DNA from: Victivallaceae bacterium
Lineage (GTDB): Bacteria > Verrucomicrobiota > Lentisphaeria > Victivallales > Victivallaceae
Assembly (NCBI GenBank): GCA_045635865.1
Contig: JAZTWK010000055.1
Location: forward strand, 11,230 to 75,229
Length of the DNA stretch: 64,000 bases
Direction: 5' to 3'
Made by a program: the position numbers and the translations under genes. Each line of letters begins with the position of its first letter. Positions within the stretch are counted from its first letter, which is position 1. This document shows positions 6,288-44,739 of this stretch, piece after piece. The notes beneath the pieces were generated by a model. It was not told the DNA's origin. It was given only the letters and a program-made list of their open reading frames with translations, and did no database searches.

Positions 6288-6316
6288 TTGATATTGCTTA
6301 ATTTTTGCGATATATT
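6288..6316 (+). promoter_or_regulatory. sigma-70-type promoter TTGATA-N17-TATATT upstream of the Fic gene
   Basis: -35 at 6288-6293, 17-nt spacer, -10 at 6311-6316. Confidence 0.5.
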
Positions 6317-6367
6317 GAGCATAGGAAATTAACCCCTCGCAATCCAACAGTGACGGAGAATGTAAAA

Positions 6368-7492
6368 ATGAGACCATGCCCTTTGGCTTCCTTGCCACCC
6401 GCCCAAGAGTTGGAAACCAAAAAAGTTCTGAAACGCGTCAACGACGCCAACCGAGAACTGGCCCTGCTCAACGGATTTTCCAGAACCATCCCCAACCAGT
6501 ACATCTTGATCCGGGCGCTCAGTTTGCAGGAGGCAAAAGACAGTTCTGAAATTGAAAGCATCATCACCACGACCGATGAACTTTATCAAGCGGAACTTTT
6601 CGAGCAGAAAACAATCTCCCCGCAAGCGAAAGAAGTTCGCAATTACGCAGAAGCGTTATTGCTGGGATACGAGCAAATCCGCAATGGTAATCTGCTTACC
6701 ATCAATAATATCTGCACTATTCAGAGCGTTTTGGAAAAAAACAATGCGGGAATCCGTAAGCAAGTCGGCACAACGCTAAAAAATGCCAGTACCGGAGAAA
6801 TCATTTATACGCCACCCCAAGACTACGATACGATAATTGCATTACTCGGGAATTTGGAAAAAGTCATCAATGTTGACGATTTTTGGCCTGAAATTGATCC
6901 ATTGGTAAAGATGGCGGCCATTCATTACCAGTTTGAAAGCATCCACCCTTTTTACGATGGCAACGGTCGCACCGGGCGAATCATTAATGTCTTATATATG
7001 GTCTTGAAAAAATTACTGGATACCCCGATCCTCTATTTGAGCCGGTATATCATCAGCAACAAAAGCGCGTATTATCAATGTTTGCAGGAAGTCCGCACGC
7101 AAAACAACTGGGAAGATTTTATTCTTTTCATGCTGGATGCGGTAATAGAAACGGCAAAAATGACGGTGGTCACGATCCAAAAAATTGATGCATCAATGCT
7201 AAAAACCAAACGTTTACTTCGGGAAAACTTCAAATTTTACAACCGGGACTTGGTTGACGCTATCTATCTCTTCCCTTACACAAGAATTCAACATCTGCAA
7301 GACGCGTTGCACATCAGTCGCAATACTGCGGCATCATATTTGAAACAGATGACCGATTTCGGACTTTTGCGCAGAATGACAAGGGGCAACTGCGCATATT
7401 TTGTCAATCAGGAATTATTCAAAATTCTTTGCGAAATTCCCGGACAGGCAGATAAATCTTCCCCAGAAATAGTAACGGATAACGGGGAATAA
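6368..7492 (+). CDS. Fic family protein (AMPylase-type; Fic/DOC N-terminal domain + Fic core + C-terminal wHTH-like region)
   Basis: Canonical Fic motif HPFYDGNGRTGR (HxFx[DE]GNGRxxR). N-terminal SSEIES element at the position of the inhibitory [ST]xxxE[GN] helix. The gene is visibly AT-richer than its neighbours. The first ATG in the ORF is at 6368. Confidence 0.85.
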   Translation: MRPCPLASLPPAQELETKKVLKRVNDANRELALLNGFSRTIPNQYILIRALSLQEAKDSSEIESIITTTDELYQAELFEQKTISPQAKEVRNYAEALLLGYEQIRNGNLLTINNICTIQSVLEKNNAGIRKQVGTTLKNASTGEIIYTPPQDYDTIIALLGNLEKVINVDDFWPEIDPLVKMAAIHYQFESIHPFYDGNGRTGRIINVLYMVLKKLLDTPILYLSRYIISNKSAYYQCLQEVRTQNNWEDFILFMLDAVIETAKMTVVTIQKIDASMLKTKRLLRENFKFYNRDLVDAIYLFPYTRIQHLQDALHISRNTAASYLKQMTDFGLLRRMTRGNCAYFVNQELFKILCEIPGQADKSSPEIVTDNGE

Positions 7493-34728: not shown

Positions 34729-34856
34729 AAGTCACCAAAAGTTGTGGGTTTTCAATGGTTCAGCTATACTATATCGCGCTAAGCGCCACAAAACAACCGA
34801 AAAGGATTGTAAAAAGTTACTTTTATCTTGCGATTTCCTCCACGCTAGCGCGCAAC

Positions 34857-34885
34857 TTGCAATCCACCGCCAAGGTGGATATATT
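34857..34885 (+). promoter_or_regulatory. sigma-70-type promoter TTGCAA-N17-TATATT whose whole spacer is a palindrome (TCCACC-GCCAA-GGTGGA)
   Basis: -35 at 34857-34862; the spacer at 34863-34879 is a 6-bp-arm inverted repeat; -10 at 34880-34885. It lies directly upstream of the AT-rich cassette. Confidence 0.5.
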
Positions 34886-34929
34886 ACACTGATGGCAAGT
34901 TTCTGATGTTAAAAAAGGGAGAAAGAGAA

Positions 34930-35571
34930 ATGCAGACGGACGACCAATCGCATGATGTATCAATCGCGCTGGAATTACTGCTTAACACTTTGATTGAAGA
35001 ACGCGGGCGCATCTTTTCTTTCGGCGAAAAGGCGATGAGCAAGCAGGATAAAGATACCGCCAAAGCCGTACTGGATTTTGCCGACAAACTGGAAGGATTT
35101 GAAGCGAAAGTCCAATCGCTGACGAAAGAATGGCAAGTTCTGGAATCTCAAAAGCTCAAAGCATCGCCGTCGGTGCAGAAAATCGTTGATGCCGGCGGTA
35201 AACTTTTCGGCTTGAAGACCAGAAAAGCTCAATCTGGTATCAAACGGGAGTTTCAGCATCCCAAGGCGCCGAAGAGCAATATTGTTGTTACTTTTCCCGC
35301 CGAGGGCAAAGAATTCAAGACCGAAAAGGCAGGAAAAACCTTTGCCCAAGTGATCGACTATATCGGCGCCGAGCGAGTTCAGCAGTTAAAATTGATTTGT
35401 TGCGGCGAGCCGCTGGTTTCATCCACGCCGAGCAAAAAATATCCTTCCAACTGCCACAAGATCAGCAAGGGATTTTTCGTTCTAACCCAGTCAAGCACAA
35501 AGCGAAAGATAGATTACTTGAATACTATCGCAAAACTGCTGAAACTTAAGACTCGCATCAAGATTTTTTGA
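34930..35571 (+). CDS. hypothetical protein (N-terminal coiled-coil-like, Lys-rich middle, conserved-looking C-terminal domain)
   Basis: The ATG at 34930 is preceded by GGGAG; an alternative ATG lies at 34906. 213 aa. No recognisable motif. G+C is intermediate between the host and the rest of the cassette. Confidence 0.55.
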   Translation: MQTDDQSHDVSIALELLLNTLIEERGRIFSFGEKAMSKQDKDTAKAVLDFADKLEGFEAKVQSLTKEWQVLESQKLKASPSVQKIVDAGGKLFGLKTRKAQSGIKREFQHPKAPKSNIVVTFPAEGKEFKTEKAGKTFAQVIDYIGAERVQQLKLICCGEPLVSSTPSKKYPSNCHKISKGFFVLTQSSTKRKIDYLNTIAKLLKLKTRIKIF

Positions 35572-35620
35572 TTATGATAGCTCTGGCATATTGTGTGTGG
35601 TGGGGATTGGGGAGGATTTT

Positions 35621-36433
35621 ATGGATCCATTCTTGAAGTGGGCCGGTGGAAAGCGATGGCTAATTGAGAAGAAGCTTTGCCCAATTCCACAAAGCTACAA
35701 AAGATTCTGCGAACCATTTGTTGGTAGCGGAGCAGTTTTATTTAACTTATCCCCTAAATCCGCAATCATAAGTGATATTAATCGGGATTTAATTGATACT
35801 TACCAAGCTTTGGCAGACGATTGGGAAGCCGTATATAAAATTCTCAAGGTTTATGATCAAAAACACAGCTATGATTTCTATTATAAGATAAGAAATTCAT
35901 CTCCGCAAAAGCCTTGTCTAAAGGCGGCTCGTTTCATATATCTCAATAGAACGTGTTGGAATGGATTATACAGAGTAAATCGAAAGGGGAAATTTAATGT
36001 TCCCAAGGGAACAAAAGAAAAAGTTATATTATCAACGGATGATTTTGAATCAATATCAAGGTTGTTGAAAAGATGTTCTATTCGAAATGATGATTTTCAA
36101 TCAGTAGTTGATGAAGCGCAAGAGGGTGATTTTTTATTTGTTGATCCTCCCTACACGGTAAAACACAACAACAATGGGTTTGTGAAATATAATGAAAAAA
36201 TGTTTTCTTGGGACGATCAAGTTCGGTTGGCAGGAACCATTAAAGAAGCCGCAAAAAGAGGCGTGCAAATAGTTGTAACGAATGCCAGCCATCAATGTAT
36301 CAAAGAACTTTATGAAGATTTTTTACAAATACCCATAACTAGAGCAAGTGTTATCGCGGCATCTCCTAAAAACAGAGGAGTATATGAAGAACTTGTAATC
36401 ACAAATATTGATAATGATAGTCAAGAGGGGTAA
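35621..36433 (+). CDS. Dam-family (D12 class, alpha-group) N6-adenine DNA methyltransferase
   Basis: FLKWAGGKRW, AdoMet motif EPFVGSGAV, YLNRTCWNGLYRVNRKGKFNVP, catalytic DPPY (36143-36154). The ATG at 35621 is preceded by GGAGG. Confidence 0.85.
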   Translation: MDPFLKWAGGKRWLIEKKLCPIPQSYKRFCEPFVGSGAVLFNLSPKSAIISDINRDLIDTYQALADDWEAVYKILKVYDQKHSYDFYYKIRNSSPQKPCLKAARFIYLNRTCWNGLYRVNRKGKFNVPKGTKEKVILSTDDFESISRLLKRCSIRNDDFQSVVDEAQEGDFLFVDPPYTVKHNNNGFVKYNEKMFSWDDQVRLAGTIKEAAKRGVQIVVTNASHQCIKELYEDFLQIPITRASVIAASPKNRGVYEELVITNIDNDSQEG

Positions 36434-36437
36434 GATT

Positions 36438-38705
36438 ATGGATTTTTCTGATGAATTTTCAAACTTAATTGAGCAAGATGATATCAAACGGTTGTTAAAG
36501 GATAAAAAAGATCCATGTTTGTATCAGTCTATCCCTCTAAAATACTTGCCTGTATATCAAGACGAAGGGTGGGAAATTCAAAAACAGTACAAAACAAAAG
36601 CTAGAATTAAAAAACACAAAACGCATTGGGACTATTTTGAAGGTAGAGTCTGGAGTCTAATGGCAAATTTAGGCTTCAAATATATGAATAAAGACTCTAA
36701 TTTTAAGATAAAATATTCTAAAGATGGTTTAACGAAACAAATTGATGTTTTTGCAGCAAACGACGAAGTTATTCTTATCACAGAATGTAAATCTGCAGAG
36801 AGTTCTAGAAAAAAAGATTTCAGCACAGAAATAAATGAGATCGGAAATTTGCGCGAAAAAATAATTAATCGTGTTAAACAGTTTTTTACCGGGAAGCCCA
36901 AAATAGCATTTTTGTTTTGCACAAACAATTGTATTGTAAACGAGCAAGACCAAAAGAGGATGAAAGATTCTAATATTCTCTGGTTAAACCAAGAAGACAT
37001 ACAATATTTTGAAAAACTAATAAACAGTATTCATGAGGCAACGATTTTTCAATTTCTTGGAAGAGTATTTGCTCAACAAACAATTCAAAACATGAAGAAT
37101 AAAGTCCCTGCAATAAGGGGAAATATGGGTGGACATCCTTTTTATTCGTTTGCGGTAGAGCCTGCAATTCTTTTGCAAATTTCTTATGTCCTTCATAGGG
37201 TTCAAACAACTGAAGATACATTAGAAACATATCAGCGAATTGTAAAACCTAAGCGTATTTCCGAGATCCAAAATTTTTTAGATGAGGGTAACTATTTTCC
37301 CAATGCAATTATTTTGAATATTGATACGCCAAAAGGCAATTCTCTTCAGTTTGATTCTGTCGGGAAAACCGATTACGATTCCAAAACTCAAATAGGAATT
37401 TTGCATTTGCCACAAAGATACCATTGTGCATACATAATAGATGGTCAACATCGGCTCTATGGATATGCAGGGAGCAAATTCAGGGACAGCAATACGATTC
37501 CTGTAATCGCTTTTGAAAACCTTCCCGCGGAAGAACAATCAAAGCTTTTTGTTGATATTAACAGCAAGCAAAAAACCGTTAGCAAGAATTTGCTGAACAC
37601 ATTAGATGCGGATTTGCGCTGGAATTCTCCTAATAAAGATGATGCAATAAAAGCATTAAAGTCAAAATTGCTTCAAAAATTGACAGACGACCAGCTGTCC
37701 CCATTGTATAAGTTGATTTCAACCGGGGACAACTCTGCCGCAAACAACACCAGTTTAACTCTCTCGTATTTGTGCTCGTATGGATTTGGGAAAACAAATT
37801 TTTTTGGTCAACTTCAAAAAAAGACAATTATCAAGTCCGGGTACTTGTGTGACAGAGAAGACCTTGCTGATTTGTCGCTAAAAAAATCTTTTTCTTACAT
37901 AAAAGATGCGTTAGATTTGATAAAAGAATGTATCCCCGAGCAGTGGGATTGTAGCAAAGAGCCGCCGTCTTTGTTACTCAAAAATGTCGGTGTCGCGGCA
38001 TTATTTCGTCTTCTCAATGATATTTTAGAGCATTTGCAAAACAACCATAATGTATCTTGTAATACAACAAGCGCAAAAACACTTTTTGAGAAATCTAAAG
38101 AATATCTAGAAGTATTTGCAGAAGAGTTAAAGAATGTCCCTTCCGCAGATATAGAGCAAATGTCAAAGCAATATGGTGCCGGAGGACCAGAAAAAGTTGC
38201 GCGGGAATTTCAACGCTGGATCAACAAGAAAAGAACAGATTTTAATCCCCCTGGATTAGAAGAATATATTCGTGATTCATCAGGATGCCATAATGAAGAA
38301 GTTCATGCAATGTTGCTTGAGTTTTTTGAAAAGTCTAGATTGTTTATCTTTGATAAGCTAAAAAACGAAGAGCCAGAAGCGTGGTGGGAAGAAAAGATTC
38401 CTATTAAAATACAGAAAAATTGCGCTATCGCCCAAATAAATGATGGCAACAAACACGAACATAGCTATTATGTAGAAAAATTCACTGATTTACAAGAAAT
38501 CATTGAATATAACTGGAAATGTTTAGGTGATTTTTTCCAAGATCCGCTTGCAGGCGGAAAAAGAAAAGATAAAATAAAATGGCTAGAGCGATTTGCTTCT
38601 TTTCAAATTCGGGTGACTAAACCAGCAAGAGAACCCATAACAGAAAGTGAATTTACTCTTATTTCAGAAACAATAGCAAGAGTAAACAACAAGATCAATA
38701 ATTAA
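36438..38705 (+). CDS. three-part protein: N-terminal PD-(D/E)XK nuclease-like domain + DGQHR (DndB/ParB-sulfiredoxin-like) domain + C-terminal degenerate HEPN-like region
   Basis: E68...D103(IDVF)...E116-C-K118 (ITECK) fits the PD-(D/E)XK pattern. YQRIVKPKR, IIDGQHRLYG (37440-37454) and LFVDINSKQKTVSKNL fit the DGQHR domain. The C-terminal WWEEKIP...DLQEIIEYNW...FQIRVTKPAR resembles Swt1-type HEPN, but with R-x5-R instead of Rx4-6H. The ATG lies 4 nt after the MTase stop. Confidence 0.7.
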   Translation: MDFSDEFSNLIEQDDIKRLLKDKKDPCLYQSIPLKYLPVYQDEGWEIQKQYKTKARIKKHKTHWDYFEGRVWSLMANLGFKYMNKDSNFKIKYSKDGLTKQIDVFAANDEVILITECKSAESSRKKDFSTEINEIGNLREKIINRVKQFFTGKPKIAFLFCTNNCIVNEQDQKRMKDSNILWLNQEDIQYFEKLINSIHEATIFQFLGRVFAQQTIQNMKNKVPAIRGNMGGHPFYSFAVEPAILLQISYVLHRVQTTEDTLETYQRIVKPKRISEIQNFLDEGNYFPNAIILNIDTPKGNSLQFDSVGKTDYDSKTQIGILHLPQRYHCAYIIDGQHRLYGYAGSKFRDSNTIPVIAFENLPAEEQSKLFVDINSKQKTVSKNLLNTLDADLRWNSPNKDDAIKALKSKLLQKLTDDQLSPLYKLISTGDNSAANNTSLTLSYLCSYGFGKTNFFGQLQKKTIIKSGYLCDREDLADLSLKKSFSYIKDALDLIKECIPEQWDCSKEPPSLLLKNVGVAALFRLLNDILEHLQNNHNVSCNTTSAKTLFEKSKEYLEVFAEELKNVPSADIEQMSKQYGAGGPEKVAREFQRWINKKRTDFNPPGLEEYIRDSSGCHNEEVHAMLLEFFEKSRLFIFDKLKNEEPEAWWEEKIPIKIQKNCAIAQINDGNKHEHSYYVEKFTDLQEIIEYNWKCLGDFFQDPLAGGKRKDKIKWLERFASFQIRVTKPAREPITESEFTLISETIARVNNKINN

Positions 38706-38750
38706 GCGCACAATATTTAGTCTCTTGTTGATCGGCATAAGGTAACTACT

Positions 38751-39635
38751 TTGAAAATTTGCATCAATCAGTTTTTGTCCAAAACCACAAGGATACGCCG
38801 AGCAACAAAGAAGAAATTATTGCAGGCAATTTATGATGATTTTTTCAATCATGTTGAGAGTACGGAAATCTTTATAATTGACGCTATTGAATCGCATGAG
38901 CAAAGAATAAAAAACAAGATTGATTTCCCCGCAACAAAACTCCCAACTTTCTCATTTGAAGCCGACCATCCGTCTGGGATCTATCAAACCGGCAAGATGT
39001 TTTATATTCCGAAGAAAAACCTTAAAACCACTTGTCGAGATGTTTTAAACTATCAGCTATGCTTGTATTTTGTTTGGTGTTTTGAGAAATTTGAGCAATT
39101 TTTAAGTCAGATATATGCTTATATTTGTTTTACAAAGTTGGCTGATTGGGAAATTGCCCACAACTATCAAAATGCTCCAGGAGATTTTTTGAGCACATTA
39201 GTTTTGGCTAAAAGGCACAAAGATTATAGCAAAACCATACCCAAATTGCAAGAAACTTTCCGTTTCATAGCCGACAAAGAAGAAAGTGGATTAAAGGATT
39301 ATCAACACCTAAAATGGCATATCTATTTTTTTGCAAAAATGCGAAATCATATTGTTCACTGTGCAACCGATATAGAAGATATGGCCAAGTTTCGTGAAGA
39401 CATAACTAAAAAAGTCGGTTGCACAAACTGCCGTAATTTTAAAACTTTTCTTGATAGAATGACTGCGCGGTATGTCAAGAGTGCTGAAAAATTTTTTCCG
39501 GCAAAAGTATGGCTTTTGAGCAACGATCCCCATGAGAATACTGCCACCAAGTGCGGGAGCACCAATCACGTTTTTCTGGCGTATGCTTCTTTAGTAAAAA
39601 CTGCGATAGAGAAAACTTTTTTCGGCGATATTTAG
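38751..39635 (+). CDS. hypothetical protein with HEPN-type Rx4H motif (putative RNase effector)
   Basis: FFAKMRNHIVHC: R198-N-H-I-V-H203 at nt 39342-39359, in a predicted helical context. The only in-frame start near the ORF 5' end is the TTG at 38751, with TAAGGT 7 nt upstream. 294 aa. Confidence 0.55.
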   Translation: MKICINQFLSKTTRIRRATKKKLLQAIYDDFFNHVESTEIFIIDAIESHEQRIKNKIDFPATKLPTFSFEADHPSGIYQTGKMFYIPKKNLKTTCRDVLNYQLCLYFVWCFEKFEQFLSQIYAYICFTKLADWEIAHNYQNAPGDFLSTLVLAKRHKDYSKTIPKLQETFRFIADKEESGLKDYQHLKWHIYFFAKMRNHIVHCATDIEDMAKFREDITKKVGCTNCRNFKTFLDRMTARYVKSAEKFFPAKVWLLSNDPHENTATKCGSTNHVFLAYASLVKTAIEKTFFGDI

Positions 39636-39741
39636 ACTTTTTTTGACTTTTTTGCGGATTTTTTTGGCTCTTGCCTTGATTTTGTAGCGGAGCTATGGTA
39701 TTTTTAGCCCGTCCTATAATTGAACTTTTGTGAGGTTTTTT

Positions 39742-40965
39742 ATGGCTGAATTACGCGCTTTTCACGGCCTCTTGCCCGATCCCAAAGTCGCTCATCTCGT
39801 TTCCGCCGTGCCCTACGACGTCGTCAATTCCGAGGAAGCCGCCCAACTCGCCGCCGGCAACCCCCTTTCCTTCCTCCACGTCTCCCGCCCCGAAATCGAC
39901 CTCGAGCCCGGCATCGACCTCTACGACGAAAAAGTTTACGCCCAGAGCCGCGCCGCCTTCGACCGCATCGGTAAGGAAGCCCCCCTCGTCGAGGACTCCG
40001 GCAAGCACCTCTATATCTATGAGCTTACCATGAACGGTCGCCGCCAGACCGGCGTCATCGGCGCCGCTTCCGCCGCCGAATATCGCTCCGGGATCATCAA
40101 AAAGCACGAGAAAACTCGTCAGGATAAGGAAGACGACCGCACCCGCCAAGTCATGGCGCTCCGTTCCCACACCGGCCCGGCGTTTTTCACCTATCGCGAC
40201 CACGCCGAGATCAACTCGATCGTCAACAGCGAAAAAGCGAAAGCCCCGCTCTTTGACTTCGTTTCCCCCGACGGCATCCGCCACCGCCTCTGGCGGCTTG
40301 ACGAAGCCGTTTCCGCCCGGCTCGAAGCCGCCTTCCGCTCCGGAGTCCCGGTCTTTTACATCGCCGACGGCCATCACCGTTCCGCCGCCGCCGCCCGCAC
40401 CGCCGTCGAGTGCGGCAAGCTCGATGACCCCAACGCCGAGAGCAACTACTTCCTCGCGGTCGCCTTTCCCGCTTCCGAGCTCGCGATCTTGCCCTACAAC
40501 CGCGTAGTCAAAAGTCTCAACGGCAAAAGCGAAGCCGACTTCCTCGCCGCGCTCGGCAAGGAATTTGTCGTCACTCCCACCGCCGACGCCGAAGTCAAAG
40601 CCCCCGGGCAATTCAAGTTTTATCTCAATGGCAAGTGGTATCTCGCCACCCCCAAATTTGATATTTCTCAACTCGGGGTCATCGCTTCCCTCGACGCCAG
40701 CATCCTGCAGGACCACGTCCTCGCCCCCATTCTCGGCATCGGCGACCCCCGCACCGACCAAAACATTTCCTTTGTCGGCGGCATCCGCGGCACCGGCGAG
40801 CTGGTCAAGCTCGTCGATTCCGGCAAGTTCGCCATCGCCTTTTCCATGCCCGCCGTCACCGTCGATCAGCTGATGAATATCGCCGACGCCGGCGAGATCA
40901 TGCCGCCCAAATCCACTTGGTTCGAGCCGAAACTGCGCGACGGACTGGTCTCGCACAACTTCTAA
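39742..40965 (+). CDS. DUF1015 family protein
   Basis: MAELRAFHGLLPDP...VSAVPYDVV N-terminus and ..FYIADGHHRSAAA.. motif, both characteristic of DUF1015. 407 aa. Confidence 0.8.
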   Translation: MAELRAFHGLLPDPKVAHLVSAVPYDVVNSEEAAQLAAGNPLSFLHVSRPEIDLEPGIDLYDEKVYAQSRAAFDRIGKEAPLVEDSGKHLYIYELTMNGRRQTGVIGAASAAEYRSGIIKKHEKTRQDKEDDRTRQVMALRSHTGPAFFTYRDHAEINSIVNSEKAKAPLFDFVSPDGIRHRLWRLDEAVSARLEAAFRSGVPVFYIADGHHRSAAAARTAVECGKLDDPNAESNYFLAVAFPASELAILPYNRVVKSLNGKSEADFLAALGKEFVVTPTADAEVKAPGQFKFYLNGKWYLATPKFDISQLGVIASLDASILQDHVLAPILGIGDPRTDQNISFVGGIRGTGELVKLVDSGKFAIAFSMPAVTVDQLMNIADAGEIMPPKSTWFEPKLRDGLVSHNF

Positions 40966-40996
40966 AGCGGCGCAACTTCCTCTCGGCGAGGGTCTT

Positions 40997-42082
40997 ATGG
41001 CGTTAATTCTCGGCATTGAATCCAGTTGCGACGAAACCGCCGCCGCGGTCGTCCGCGACGGGCGGGAGGTGCTTTCCAGCGTCGTTGCTTCGCAGATTGC
41101 CAAGCACGCCCCTCACGGCGGCGTCGTACCCGAACTCGCCGCCCGCGAGCACCTCAAAGCCTTGCCCCACGTCGTCCCCGCCGCCTTGCGCGAAGCCGGG
41201 ATCGCGCTTTCCGACCTCGCCGCCGTCGCGGTGACGCAGGGCCCCGGACTCATCCCGGCGCTTCTGGTCGGGCTCAACTACGCCAAGGGTCTGGCGCAGG
41301 GCGCGGGCTTGCCGCTTATTGGCGTAAATCACTTTATGGCACACATTTACGGCGCTTTTCTCGACGGCGCCGACCCGCTTCTTCAAGACCCCGCGACCTA
41401 TCCCCTGCTCGCGCTGGTCGTTTCCGGCGGCCACACTTCGCTCGTGCTGGTCGAAGCCGACGGCAGGGCGCGGCAGTTGGGCAGCACCATCGACGACGCC
41501 GCGGGCGAAGCCCTCGACAAGGGCGCCAAGCTCCTCGGTTTGGGTTATCCCGGCGGCCCGATCATTCAGAAAACGGCGGAATCGGGCGACGAAACCGCGT
41601 TCAACTTCCCCCGGCCGCTCACCGGCGCGGCGGGCAAGCCGCTCGACCCGGCGTTGCGTTATTCTTTCAGTTTCAGCGGCATCAAGACCGCCTTGCTCTA
41701 CCACGTCAGAAAGTATGCGGGTGAATCCGGAACTCTTTCCGGCAAAATGCTTTACGATACAGTAGCCTCTTATCAGGCGGCGGTGGTCGACACCCTCTGC
41801 CGCAAGGCGCTCAAGGCGGCGGCGGACTTCCGCGCCAAGACCCTCGTGGTGGCGGGCGGCGTCGCCTGCAACCAAAAGCTCCGCGACGAACTCGCCCGGC
41901 GGCTCCCCGCTCAACTCGCGCTCCGCATCGCCCCGCCCAAGTACTGCACCGACAATGCCGCCATGGTCGGCGGGATCGGCTTCTGCCACTATCGCCGTTC
42001 CGATTTTGCCCCGCTGGACATCGACTCTTTCGCCCGACTGCCGAAATTTGTGCAAGTGCCTTTCGTCGGCGGGGATAGATAA
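40997..42082 (+). CDS. tsaD: tRNA N6-adenosine threonylcarbamoyltransferase
   Basis: ILGIESSCDETAAAVV, ..HMAHI.., ..VSGGHT.., ..DEAxDK-like GEALDKGAKLLGLGYPGGP. 361 aa. Confidence 0.9.
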   Translation: MALILGIESSCDETAAAVVRDGREVLSSVVASQIAKHAPHGGVVPELAAREHLKALPHVVPAALREAGIALSDLAAVAVTQGPGLIPALLVGLNYAKGLAQGAGLPLIGVNHFMAHIYGAFLDGADPLLQDPATYPLLALVVSGGHTSLVLVEADGRARQLGSTIDDAAGEALDKGAKLLGLGYPGGPIIQKTAESGDETAFNFPRPLTGAAGKPLDPALRYSFSFSGIKTALLYHVRKYAGESGTLSGKMLYDTVASYQAAVVDTLCRKALKAAADFRAKTLVVAGGVACNQKLRDELARRLPAQLALRIAPPKYCTDNAAMVGGIGFCHYRRSDFAPLDIDSFARLPKFVQVPFVGGDR

Positions 42083-42723
42083 TGAAAAAACTTCTGGTCA
42101 TCGACCTCGACGGCACCCTCGCGGATACCCGCGCCGACCTCGCCGCCGCGGTCAACGCGATGCGGGCGAGCCTTGCGCTTCCCCCGTTGCCGGTGGATTT
42201 CGTCGTCCGGCAGGTCGGCGACGGGATCTCCGCGCTGATCCGCCGCACGCTTCCCGCCGAAGCCGACTTTGCCGCCGGGAGCGCCGCGATGACGGACTTT
42301 TACCGTCAGCATCTACTCGACGCCACCAAACTTTATCCGCAAGTCAAGGAAACGCTCGCCACGCTCCACTCCGCCGGGGTGGTGATCGCGCTCTTTTCCA
42401 ACAAGCCGCAGGGGGCGTGTGAAAAGATCCTCACCGGGCTGGAGATCGCCCCGTTTTTCACCGAGATCATCGGCGGGGGCGGGGATTTCCCCCTCAAGCC
42501 CGACCCGGCGGCGCTCCTTTACCTGCGGGAAAAGTTCGCGCTTCCGGCGAAAGATTGCTATATGTTCGGCGACCACAAAACGGATATCGCCGCCGCGCGC
42601 CGCGCCGGGTTCCGGAGCATTTTCGCTTCTTTCGGCTTCGGCCGTTTGGGCGAGGACGCGCCGGACTCCGCCGTAAACCGTTTCGCCGAAATACTACCCC
42701 TTTTACTCGGAGTTGACCAATGA
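42082..42723 (+). CDS. HAD-IA family phosphatase (phosphoglycolate phosphatase-like)
   Basis: LVIDLDGTLADT motif I, ..SNKP.. motif II, ..MFGDHKTD.. motif IV. 1-nt overlap with the tsaD stop. Confidence 0.75.
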   Translation: MKKLLVIDLDGTLADTRADLAAAVNAMRASLALPPLPVDFVVRQVGDGISALIRRTLPAEADFAAGSAAMTDFYRQHLLDATKLYPQVKETLATLHSAGVVIALFSNKPQGACEKILTGLEIAPFFTEIIGGGGDFPLKPDPAALLYLREKFALPAKDCYMFGDHKTDIAAARRAGFRSIFASFGFGRLGEDAPDSAVNRFAEILPLLLGVDQ

Positions 42724-44048
42724 AAATAAAACTCCCGGAACACGCCGAATTTGCCGCCGTGAAACTTGCGGCGCAACGGCTCATCGCCGCCGGATTTCCC
42801 ACCCGGCTGGTCGGCGGCTCGGTGCGCGATCTGATCATGGCGCGCCCGCCGTCGGACTACGACCTTGTCACCGTCGCCACCCCGGAGCAGATTTTTGCGC
42901 TCTTTCCCGAAGCCAAACTCGTCGGCGCAAGTTTCGGGGTGACGATCCTCAAGATCAACGACTTTTCCTTTGAGTGCGCCACCGCCCGCGAGGAGCGCGG
43001 CTACATGGACGGCCGCCACCCCACCGAGGTCAAGTACACCACCAGTTTTGAGGTCGATTCGGCGCGGCGGGACTTCACCATCAACGCCATGAGTTGCGAC
43101 CCGGTCACCGGGGAAGTTTTCGACTATCACGGCGGTATTTCCGACTTGCGCCGCGGAGTGATCCGCACGGTCGGCGACCCCGGTCAGCGCTTCGACGAGG
43201 ACTATTTGCGGATGCTCCGGGCGGTCCGCTTCGCCGGGCGGTACGACTTTGAACTCGACCCCGCCACCGCCGCGGCGATCGTCGATCGCGCCGCCAAGGC
43301 GCGGGAAATTTCCGGCGAGCGCATCGCCGCCGAACTCAATATGATGCTCGAAAGCCGCGACCCCGCCGGGTGCGTCGCCCGCTTGGAAGAGTGCCGACTG
43401 CTCCCGCACATCCTGCCCGAAGTCGCACTTTTGCGCGGCATTTCCCAGCCCCCGGAATTCCACCCCGAGGGCGATGTTTTAACGCATACACTCTTGATGC
43501 TCAAGCACTTGGCGCTGCCGAACCGGCTCTTGGCGTGGAGCGTTTTGCTCCACGACGTCGGCAAGGGGAAGACCCGGAGCGTCGATCCCGACGGGCGGAT
43601 CCGTTTTTTCGGCCACGAGAGCGTCGGGGCGGAGATCGCGGAAAAACTCCTCATCCGGCTCCACTTCCCCACCGACGAGATCGAGATCATCACCCACGCG
43701 ATCGCCAATCACATGCGCTTTGCCGCGGTGCGGGAAATGCGTCAGGCGAAACTGCTCCGGCTGATCGCCGAGCCGAATTTCCCCCTGGAGCTGGAGTTGC
43801 ACCGGGTCGATTGCCTCTGCTCAAACTCGTTCTTGGCGGGATTCGTCTTTTTGCTCGACGCCTGCCGAAAGGCGCCGCGGCAACTGCCGGAACCGTGGGT
43901 TTCCGGGCGGGATCTCATCGCGCTCGGCGGCACCCCCGGCAAGCACTTCGGCAAAATCCTCTCGGAAATTTTTGACGCGCAGATCACCGGGGAACTCGCT
44001 TCGCGCGAGGAGGCGCTGGCGCGCGCCGCCAAGTTCCTTGAGGAGTAA
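42720..44048 (+). CDS. cca: CCA tRNA nucleotidyltransferase (PolyA polymerase head + HD domain)
   Basis: LVGGSVRDLI..., ..RRDFTINAM.., HD-domain LLHDVGK. 442 aa. Confidence 0.8.
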   Translation: MKIKLPEHAEFAAVKLAAQRLIAAGFPTRLVGGSVRDLIMARPPSDYDLVTVATPEQIFALFPEAKLVGASFGVTILKINDFSFECATAREERGYMDGRHPTEVKYTTSFEVDSARRDFTINAMSCDPVTGEVFDYHGGISDLRRGVIRTVGDPGQRFDEDYLRMLRAVRFAGRYDFELDPATAAAIVDRAAKAREISGERIAAELNMMLESRDPAGCVARLEECRLLPHILPEVALLRGISQPPEFHPEGDVLTHTLLMLKHLALPNRLLAWSVLLHDVGKGKTRSVDPDGRIRFFGHESVGAEIAEKLLIRLHFPTDEIEIITHAIANHMRFAAVREMRQAKLLRLIAEPNFPLELELHRVDCLCSNSFLAGFVFLLDACRKAPRQLPEPWVSGRDLIALGGTPGKHFGKILSEIFDAQITGELASREEALARAAKFLEE

Positions 44049-44052
44049 ACTT

Positions 44053-44739
44053 ATGCTCGTCGCCGCCAATCCCAACGCGGGTCACCGCCGCCGGTTGCGC
44101 GAAAAGTTTCTCGCGCACGGTCTCGAAGCGTTGGCGGACTACGAGCGCATCGAGTTACTGCTCACTTACGCCATTGCCCGGCGCGACACCAAGGCTCTGG
44201 CGAAACGGCTGTTGGAAAAGTTTGGCTCGCTGGAAAATCTCCTCGACGCTCCGGCGCACGAATTGCTCGCCACCCCCGGGATCGGCGAGAGCGCCGCCGC
44301 GCTTATATTGCTCTTGAAACCGCTCTGCACCAAGTATTTGGAAGATCGCTTCACCCGCACCCCGATCAAGCTGGGCGAACCGCAGGCAATGGTCAACTTT
44401 CTGCGCATGAAAATCGGCGCCTTGAGCAAAGAGACCTTGTTTTTGCTCTATCTCGACTCGCGGGATCAGCTCATCGGTTATCGCGCCATCGCCGGCACGG
44501 TCGATCGCGCGCCGATCTTTGTACGCGAAGTCGTGGAAGATGCCCTGCTCCGCCACGCCTGCTCGGTGGTGGCGGCGCACAATCACCCCAGCGGCATTTG
44601 CGAACCCACCGGCGATGATATAAATTTGATCGGCGCGTTGGCGCGGGCGCTTGACTCGGTCGGGATCAAGCTCGCCGACCATTTGGTAATCACCAAAAGC
44701 GCCTCATTCAGCTTTGTCGCGCACAAATTCCTCAAGTAG
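44053..44739 (+). CDS. radC: RadC-family JAB/MPN domain protein
   Basis: ..YERIELLL.. HhH region and JAMM motif AAHNHPSG. The ATG at 44053 follows the cca stop. Confidence 0.85.
   Translation: MLVAANPNAGHRRRLREKFLAHGLEALADYERIELLLTYAIARRDTKALAKRLLEKFGSLENLLDAPAHELLATPGIGESAAALILLLKPLCTKYLEDRFTRTPIKLGEPQAMVNFLRMKIGALSKETLFLLYLDSRDQLIGYRAIAGTVDRAPIFVREVVEDALLRHACSVVAAHNHPSGICEPTGDDINLIGALARALDSVGIKLADHLVITKSASFSFVAHKFLK

Follow-up and report, generated by a model that had tools for sequence, protein, structure and literature searches.

Fusions of a ParB-like domain with a Swt1-family HEPN domain, with Saro_3948 as the exemplar, were tabulated by Anantharaman et al. in 2013 (PMC3710099). The same comparative genomics study listed a 'HEPN in operon with ParB nuclease and DNA methylase' and proposed that HEPN domains linked to restriction-modification (R-M) systems act as RNA-directed effectors. 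Also in 2013, Makarova et al. (PMC3632139) reported a ParB-like COG1479 core that is fused to HNH, PD-(D/E)xK and HEPN nucleases, and they equated this core with DUF262 and the DGQHR domain. Relatives of the DGQHR domain bind or hydrolyse nucleoside triphosphates (NTPs): DpdB is an ATPase, DndB is modulated by ATP, and binding of ATP and GTP is documented for a DndB-like protein (PMC12839542, PMC12704722). Here, we describe a gene pair of this kind in a stretch of 64,000 nucleotides (nt) from a Victivallaceae bacterium (assembly GCA_045635865.1, contig JAZTWK010000055.1, positions 11,230 to 75,229 of the forward strand), which was analyzed as a whole and is called the window in the following. 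The pair consists of a gene for a Dam-family methylase and a gene for a protein of 755 amino acids (aa), named the R gene, in which a nuclease, a DGQHR and a HEPN domain are combined. An initial annotation, which was made from the sequence alone, had regarded the locus as a candidate undescribed defence system of four genes. The word undescribed was too strong, because ParB-HEPN fusions and operons with methylases had already been tabulated in 2013 (PMC3710099, PMC3632139). Hence, the pair is a member of an already predicted kind, and its architecture is not undescribed.

Four open reading frames (ORFs), which represent real genes, are situated on the + strand in the region 34857-39741, and the gaps of 49, 4 and 45 nt between them were reproduced with refined start sites. 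The two central ORFs form the pair. This pair is the conserved system, and the two outer genes, ORF1 and ORF4, are independent accessory genes lodged beside it. It is probable that the core acts as a two-gene R-M-like module, in which the methylase marks self and the 755-aa partner restricts, with ORF1 and ORF4 as separate accessory genes. The two genes of the pair and the domains of the larger protein have the following positions:

35621..36433, + strand: Dam-family (D12 class, alpha) N6-adenine DNA methyltransferase of 270 aa, matching PF02086, TIGR00571 and PADLOC MTase_II.
36438..38705, + strand: 755-aa three-domain protein, the predicted restriction/effector subunit, starting 4 nt past the Dam stop codon.
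36615..37082, + strand: its N-terminal PD-(D/E)xK nuclease domain, approximately aa 60-215, with E68, D103 and E116-C117-K118.
37101..38057, + strand: its DGQHR domain of the DndB/DpdB-type ParB/Srx fold, approximately aa 222-540, matching TIGR03187.
38292..38702, + strand: its C-terminal Swt1-like HEPN domain, approximately aa 619-755, with PF18731 in relatives and PADLOC PDC-M34B.

The genes that travel together were identified by scanning metagenome and viral contigs with the family alignment, which together with the earlier loci yielded 90 loci with a full-length R homologue, 83 of them with enough flank for judging methylase adjacency. This alignment-based scan was far more productive than the scan of genome contigs with the single protein, which gave one locus. 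A D12/Dam methylase directly adjoins the R homologue on the same strand in 76 of the 83 assessable loci. It is mostly located upstream, and often the stop and start codons lie only a few bases apart or share bases (-4 or -1 nt). The closest relatives of the R gene (77, 68, 60 and 42% identity) are each found directly behind a Dam methylase in plain two-gene cassettes, and ORF1-like or ORF4-like genes were not found beside them. At one locus (L047:102-4177) a Dam methylase, R.DpnII (PF04556, 1e-94) and the fusion gene stand in a row, with the methylase one gene away, showing that the fusion protein can ride on a canonical GATC R-M system. Furthermore, the pairwise identities of the methylases and of the nucleases are correlated (r=0.72 for 52 pairs, a value reached by 0 of 2000 Mantel permutations); hence, the two genes are passed on together. 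The initial suggestion that the methylase and the nuclease-DGQHR protein represent a functional pair thus gained support from their adjacency and their co-divergence.

The outer genes behave in another way. Relatives of ORF1 and ORF4 occurred in 0 of the 90 loci, and phmmer searches against all ORFs of 118 loci matched only their own loci. Co-occurrence in other genomes had been named in the initial annotation as one of the points on which the four-gene system would stand or fall, and for two of its four genes it was not found. Because of this absence, and because their relatives adjoin other R-M-like operons, ORF1 and ORF4 are regarded as accessory. The genes that follow the fusion gene on the same strand are of mixed kinds and include Shedu, HsdR-like, SNF2, MazG-like, KilA-N, T5orf172 and WYL genes (Pfam, 24 neighbours). 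A conserved third gene at this place was also considered and was rejected on the heterogeneity of these neighbours in the Pfam census. Two HEPN_Swt1 matches among them most likely represent one unrelated 1185-aa gene present in two contigs.

The methylase matches PF02086 (2.5e-49), TIGR00571 (1.8e-69; 234 bits vs. a cutoff of 115) and PADLOC MTase_II (2e-102). Its ORF encodes the S-adenosylmethionine (SAM)-binding motif FVGSG as well as the catalytic motif DPPY, and its start is preceded by a GGAGG Shine-Dalgarno sequence. This protein is the predicted modification subunit of the pair. Among solved structures, it is closest to DpnM (2dpm, 1.2e-52), followed by Dam from E. coli (approximately 3e-27). 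GATC appears to be the likeliest target of the methylase, because of the similarity to DpnM and the DpnII-containing locus mentioned above.

The R family comprises more than 2,445 homologues from Bacteria and Archaea, most of which have about 750 aa and align with 95-100% of the query. It is also found on plasmids and some viral contigs, and among the first 600 metagenome candidates, 513 proved to be relatives. Standard annotation names its members only "DGQHR domain-containing protein". In the following, conservation counts refer to an alignment of 113 homologous sequences, and family-level Pfam and PADLOC counts to 24 full-length members. The AlphaFold2 model of the 755-aa protein has a mean pLDDT of 90.1. 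In the N-terminal domain, the residues E68, D103, E116, C117 and K118 are each shared by 112 of the 113 homologues. Its fold resembles the nuclease domains of Cdn1, VC1899, AF1548, Card1 and Can2 in Foldseek (E 1.8e-4 to 0.1, prob 0.97-1.0), Pfam matches to Hjc, Card1_endonuc and NERD were obtained for 7, 5 and 3 of the 24 members, respectively, and the CARF_PDDEXK models of PADLOC match this domain weakly. A sequence-profile search for solved-structure relatives of the family gave none at E<=1. The central domain matches TIGR03187 (5.3e-51, exceeding its cutoff), and the DGQHR motif at residues 335-339 is invariant (113/113). The equivalog models for DndB, DpdB and DGQHR_dnd_1 score far under their cutoffs. 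By analogy with its relatives, the DGQHR domain is predicted to be an NTP-binding and DNA-binding switch.

The third domain of the fusion, at its C-terminus, had been overlooked in the initial annotation, which had correctly recognised the nuclease and DGQHR domains. The HEPN_Swt1 profile PF18731 matches 8 of the 24 family members (best 2.2e-6) and gives no match with the window protein itself; since these eight are aligned full-length homologues, the C-terminal domain of the window protein is regarded as homologous to HEPN_Swt1. Moreover, PADLOC PDC-M34B matches at 1.3e-7 the aa 629-712 of the 765-aa ORF starting from 36408 (i.e. aa 619-702 of the 755-aa protein), and its two profiles match 13 and 6 of the 24 members. 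The HEPN consensus 'IRxKxSHPER' contains the Rx4H motif; 106 of the 113 homologues retain its R and 104 its H. The window protein has lost this motif and shows Q723...K728 where its relatives carry R...H. Similar replacements characterise the clade that it forms with its seven closest relatives (P0001-P0008, >=60% identity), where H is changed to K or R in 8/8 and R to Q or H in 7/8 sequences; the nuclease and DGQHR motifs are retained despite this loss. The HEPN RNase site is predicted to be dead in this clade, and because of the lost Rx4H site the domain is here probably structural, e.g. a dimerisation element. All motifs that the initial annotation had cited (FxGxG, DPPY, D...ExK, DGQHR and the Rx4H of ORF4) are present, and those of the 755-aa protein and of ORF4 are conserved in homologues. 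Its idea of combined DNA and RNA effectors is weakened by the lost HEPN site of the fusion.

In comparison with described systems, the pair shares with type II R-M of the DpnII type the organisation as a two-gene, same-strand, tightly coupled cassette of methylase and PD-(D/E)xK endonuclease; the methylase has DpnM as its closest solved relative, and L047 even includes R.DpnII. In contrast to these systems, the endonuclease is here a 755-aa protein with added DGQHR/ParB-fold and HEPN domains and without similarity to R.DpnII, and NTP dependence, which is absent from classical type IIP enzymes, would be likely by analogy. Of the hallmarks of type II R-M, SAM-binding and DPPY motifs, an intact nuclease motif and fold, as well as linkage and co-inheritance were found for the pair, whose sequence features would fit a system that works like type II R-M with an elaborated endonuclease. 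The Saro_3948-type ParB-HEPN fusions belong to the same family. The gene on pNL1 encodes a full-length homologue with 31% identity across 94% of the query, and it presumably corresponds to 'Saro_3948', judged from organism and architecture and not from the old locus tag. However, the papers of 2013 give table entries only, with no restriction endonuclease (REase) domain for the exemplar and neither mechanism nor experiment, and the window copy differs in being without the HEPN Rx4H.

The DGQHR ParB/Srx-fold domain (TIGR03187; PADLOC DpdB 1e-27) and the association with a DNA-modification enzyme are shared with DndB and DpdB, whereas both of these are without a PD-(D/E)xK domain. The scores of 32 bits with the DndB model TIGR03233 (cutoff 328) and of 91 bits with the DpdB model NF041060 (cutoff 300) show that the protein is neither a Dnd nor a Dpd member. 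Genes such as dndACDE, dpdA (TGT-like) or dpdC were not found as neighbours at the window locus, where the R gene is surrounded by Dam, ORF1, ORF4, glycoside-hydrolase-like genes and DUF1015/tsaD/HAD/cca. GmrSD, BrxU and SspE also combine a ParB/Srx-fold nucleotide-binding sensor with a DNA nuclease and reside in defence islands. They have DGQQR and HNH where the R protein has DGQHR and PD-(D/E)xK, the domain order differs, and they are described as modification-dependent or phosphorothioate-sensing (PMC4619093, PMC12839542), unlike the present locus with its cognate methylase. Pfam gave no DUF262 or DUF1524 match at E<=0.1. Dnd, Dpd, Ssp and GmrSD are therefore excluded by equivalog scores under the cutoffs, by the missing DUF262/DUF1524 matches and by the lack of dnd/dpd neighbours, in line with the initial annotation for the first three. 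The unpublished multi-gene PADLOC candidate PDC-M34 resembles the R protein in the C-terminal HEPN-like domain, which is matched by the PDC-M34B profiles, but this concerns a stretch of about 90 residues of one subunit only, and an equivalent of PDC-M34A was not detected; a literature search returned no paper describing PDC-M34. The PADLOC check proposed earlier for the four proteins assigned no named system: none was complete, the matches being MTase_II, DpdB-like, the partial PDC-M34B and the weak CARF_PDDEXK, and none was obtained for ORF1 and ORF4. Likewise, searches of the literature for experimental work on the R family ('DndB-like', 'Swt1-like HEPN' in defence) found none.

The methylase appears to be exchangeable in other members of the family. 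In five Dam-less loci, an orthologous pair of radical-SAM and GHKL-ATPase genes replaces the methylase beside the REase-DGQHR-HEPN gene:

L022; L025:7332-10426; L029:7322-10437: Dam-less loci with the radical-SAM + GHKL pair.
NC_009426.1 118850-122990 (L120): Dam-less locus on pNL1 of Novosphingobium aromaticivorans with the radical-SAM + GHKL pair.
NZ_CP072139.1 169657-173880 (L121): Dam-less locus on an Agrobacterium plasmid with the radical-SAM + GHKL pair.

The radical-SAM proteins have about 525-540 aa with weak class-B/B12-type matches, and the GHKL (HSP90/MORC-like) ATPases have about 480-525 aa. A small stand-alone DGQHR protein is additionally encoded on both plasmids. The radical-SAM + GHKL pair may be an alternative DNA-marking module. 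In our view, the 755-aa family may be an effector with a swappable partner, which is supported by these five loci. A further context was observed in Flavobacterium paronense (L008:4118-11083; JAUFQN010000019.1), where a 40%-identical full-length homologue is situated between gyrB/parE-like and parC-like genes with no adjacent defence genes.

The two accessory genes at the window locus were analyzed as well:

34930..35571, + strand: ORF1, 213 aa (221 aa if the start is at 34906), accessory gene outside the conserved pair.
38751..39635, + strand: ORF4, 294 aa with TTG start, all-alpha protein of a rare family, whose homologues align from residue 1.

For ORF1, the ATG at 34930 is the preferred start because of a GGGAG Shine-Dalgarno sequence, in agreement with the 213-aa NCBI call P0122. 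The N-terminal half of the protein is helical and the C-terminal half is conserved and alpha/beta-like; no match was obtained in Pfam (also on 7 members), NCBIfam, PADLOC, PHROG or a PDB profile search. Its family has only 6 homologues with about 50% identity (alignment A4). Two relatives were looked up (L009-L013) and adjoin operons with Eco57I/MmeI-type adenine methylases and SNF2/PLD helicases, and Hachiman. The defence islands of these two relatives also hold a resolvase-linked shufflon of TaqI_C specificity genes, and every ORF1 context seen so far is an adenine-methylase-based system.

For ORF4, a word-indexed search of 5.8 billion non-redundant proteins returned only ORF4 itself, and six remote homologues were obtained when 1.84 billion cluster representatives were scanned in full with HMMER. 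The residues E112, E115, R198 and H203 are invariant across the resulting 7-member family (alignment A2). The AlphaFold2 model (pLDDT 76) shows an all-alpha protein, in which Rx4H closes helix 187-204 and E112/E115 belong to the earlier long helix 88-136, a placement of Rx4H and acidic residues that fits the HEPN description by Anantharaman et al. 2013 (PMC3710099). A HEPN fold found no support in Pfam (with the protein and the 7-member family), PADLOC, NCBIfam, PHROGs or a PDB profile search, nor in Foldseek, where the best PDB match had E 0.6 and the best BFVD match, to an unnamed protein, E 0.053. In hhalign, the probability for similarity of the ORF4 family to the HEPN domain of the fusion was 0.1%, and tblastn against plasmids gave no support for the assignment either. 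Of the claim that ORF4 is a HEPN protein, the intact Rx4H, invariant in all seven members, thus stands, while profile and fold searches did not bear it out, and ORF4 may be called HEPN-like by motif only. One ORF4 homologue is located 6 nt behind an operon of ResIII and an N6_N4 methylase, and another is followed by a Fic-like gene. ORF4 is described as a candidate HEPN-like RNase/toxin or abortive-infection-type accessory gene.

In the mechanism that we propose for the pair, the Dam-family methylase would mark host DNA with N6-methyladenine, likeliest at GATC, and the PD-(D/E)xK domain of the 755-aa protein would cut DNA, which is argued from its near-invariant site. Because of the analogy with DndB, DpdB, SspE and GmrSD/BrxU, the DGQHR ParB/Srx-fold domain might act as an NTP-dependent DNA-binding switch licensing the cleavage of unmarked DNA, and NTP gating of cleavage by this domain is probable on the same analogy. 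The HEPN domain with intact Rx4H could be a second, RNA-directed effector in most relatives and would have only a structural role in this clade. ORF4 might be a HEPN-like toxin of the kind trailing R-M operons, lodged beside the pair. From such comparisons we infer methylation-sensitive cleavage, NTP gating, the GATC target and any RNase activity. A bolder version can be put forward only tentatively: REase-DGQHR-HEPN proteins could represent a distinct class of restriction enzymes, in which an NTP-gated sensor for the marking of DNA is combined with a DNase and, in the majority of members, with an RNase. Their partners would be interchangeable, a Dam methylase in most loci or else a radical-SAM + GHKL pair (sometimes joined by the small DGQHR protein) that would write a novel DNA modification; separately, ORF4 would belong to a new, very rare family of HEPN-like toxins trailing R-M operons.

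Several observations weigh against the interpretation of the pair as an R-M-like module. The literature search found no biochemical or genetic data on any R family member, DndB itself is described as a regulator and not as a nuclease, and the 755-aa protein matches no REase_II model of PADLOC. A few R homologues occur without adjacent methylase, for example in Flavobacterium paronense and at L053, and such solitary copies would be awkward for an enzyme that attacks unmodified DNA if no methylase were acting in trans. The proposed GATC specificity was deduced from the similarity to DpnM and a single DpnII-containing locus, and host DNA shows no avoidance of GATC (observed/expected 1.2, a value uninformative on specificity). 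Finally, the census holds near-identical gut contigs, and 67 methylase/nuclease pairs were reduced to 52 by de-duplication at 95%.

Other explanations have been weighed against this reading. It seems rather unlikely that all four genes form one integrated defence system behind one promoter, in which self is labelled by methylation and the 755-aa protein and ORF4 are directed against DNA and RNA, respectively. The common strand, the gaps of 49/4/45 nt and the lack of a terminator-like site between the genes would agree with such a system, as would the invariant Rx4H of ORF4 and the known pattern of HEPN genes inside R-M operons (PMC3710099); since the HEPN site of the fusion is lost here, a stand-alone RNase could in principle replace it. 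However, the closest cassettes share the dead HEPN and are yet without ORF1 and ORF4, whose relatives are missing from all 90 loci and adjoin unrelated R-M-like operons; moreover, ORF1 differs in G+C (0.46), and the genes downstream of the fusion gene are heterogeneous. We also see little reason to regard the 755-aa protein as a DndB/DpdB-like NTPase or regulator of the adjacent methylase in an epigenetic or modification-only module. It would be difficult to see why a pure regulator should keep the residues of PD-(D/E)xK (in 112/113) and Rx4H (in 104/113). In addition, the equivalog scores for DndB and DpdB are far under their cutoffs, and the neighbourhoods are defence islands. In favour of such a role, the DGQHR domain gives the strongest match, some homologues are without adjacent methylase, and the relatives DndB and DpdB are described as a repressor modulated by ATP and as an ATPase required for base insertion, respectively (PMC12839542).

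It is likewise improbable that the pair is mainly a selfish addiction or abortive-infection module, i.e. a toxin that is checked by methylation or NTP levels and kills the cell on loss of the methylase or on NTP depletion by infection, rather than selectively cutting invader DNA. Such a role would be compatible with the two nuclease types, DNase and RNase, of most relatives, with ParB/Srx domains that can serve as NTP sensors (PMC12704722, PMC12839542), with the co-inheritance of the module as a mobile unit and with the suicide roles proposed by Anantharaman et al. for R-M-linked HEPN domains (PMC3710099). Nonetheless, the pair persists in the clade that has lost the RNase site, and in silico nothing separates such a module from ordinary R-M behaviour. 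The most improbable explanation is a modification-dependent type IV enzyme similar to GmrSD or SspE with the Dam gene as an unrelated orphan neighbour. The combination of a ParB-like domain with a nuclease recalls GmrSD, BrxU and SspE, and Foldseek gave a weak match to BrxU (E 0.044, prob 0.21), but the coupling to a co-diverging methylase is conserved and often overlapping, no DUF262/DUF1524 profile match was found, and the nuclease fold differs from the HNH nuclease of GmrSD (PMC4619093). A two-gene R-M-like module therefore remains our favoured interpretation of the pair.

The region that harbours the pair is a composite, horizontally acquired, defence-type island. Its left and right surroundings are given by the following features:

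34729..34929, unstranded: intergenic stretch that separates ORF1 from the divergent glycoside-hydrolase-like gene on the minus strand (start 34728), with a promoter-like site at 34857-34885.
39636..39741, unstranded: right junction and upstream region of the host DUF1015 gene, compared with contig L119 of a relative.

The island of about 4.9 kb is the sole strongly AT-rich stretch of the 64-kb window. The earlier estimate of roughly one third G+C against about 60% outside holds for the Dam, R and ORF4 genes (0.363, 0.348 and 0.362) between 5-kb flanks of 0.606 and 0.628, and does not hold for ORF1, which is intermediate (0.463). The single strong promoter claimed at 34857 could not be substantiated: the site agrees with the consensus at 9/12 positions, and the region has 14 sites of this quality, as many as expected from shuffles (13.0 +/- 3.8). 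Terminator-like sites were not seen between the four genes in the region. At the borders of the island, flanking direct or inverted repeats, tRNA genes and Rfam families were looked for and none found, and the left border was not mappable. The right border was revealed by L119, a contig from a related organism with 82% DNA identity over the window positions 39638-44649, which correspond to DUF1015-tsaD-HAD-cca. The homology begins at 39638, 3 bases past the ORF4 stop codon, and upstream of it (L119:1-1291) two different AT-rich genes with 34-44% G+C are found in place of the island, a partial gene of >147 aa and a 284-aa gene, neither with a Pfam match on record. Since L119 carries different cargo upstream of DUF1015, the insertion site just upstream of the host DUF1015-tsaD-HAD-cca block is a hotspot where cargo varies within this lineage.

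Some further observations concern the surrounding host DNA. The neighbour at 39742-40965 encodes a DUF1015 protein, and a survey of the ParB-CTPase fold from 2025 counts DUF1015 (printed 'DU1015') among the domains fused to that fold (PMC12704722); its vicinity to the ParB-fold protein of the island is probably a coincidence. A Fic-domain gene with the motif HPFYDGNGR was found at window positions 6305-7492 within a second, milder dip in G+C (0.47-0.50 at 6-8 kb), and it may be another acquired or defence-type gene. The host DNA (window positions 1-34728 and 39638-64000) strongly avoids GGCC, with 95 observed vs. 489 expected sites (ratio 0.19), which suggests long-term pressure by a HaeIII-type restriction system. 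In the same DNA, CTAG is strongly avoided as well, being observed 2 times vs. 27 expected.

For this window the outcome is mainly corrective, as the four-gene system is replaced by a two-gene module with two hitch-hiking genes. For the family the consequences may reach further, since current defence-system finders do not name this very large group of proteins. If it is shown to be a methylation-guided and possibly NTP-gated nuclease, a common class of R-M would be added to the defence catalogues, and the DndB/DpdB-type ParB fold would gain a role as effector. The natural loss of Rx4H in one clade offers a ready comparison for the contribution of the RNase domain, and a novel DNA modification may be indicated by the radical-SAM + GHKL partner.

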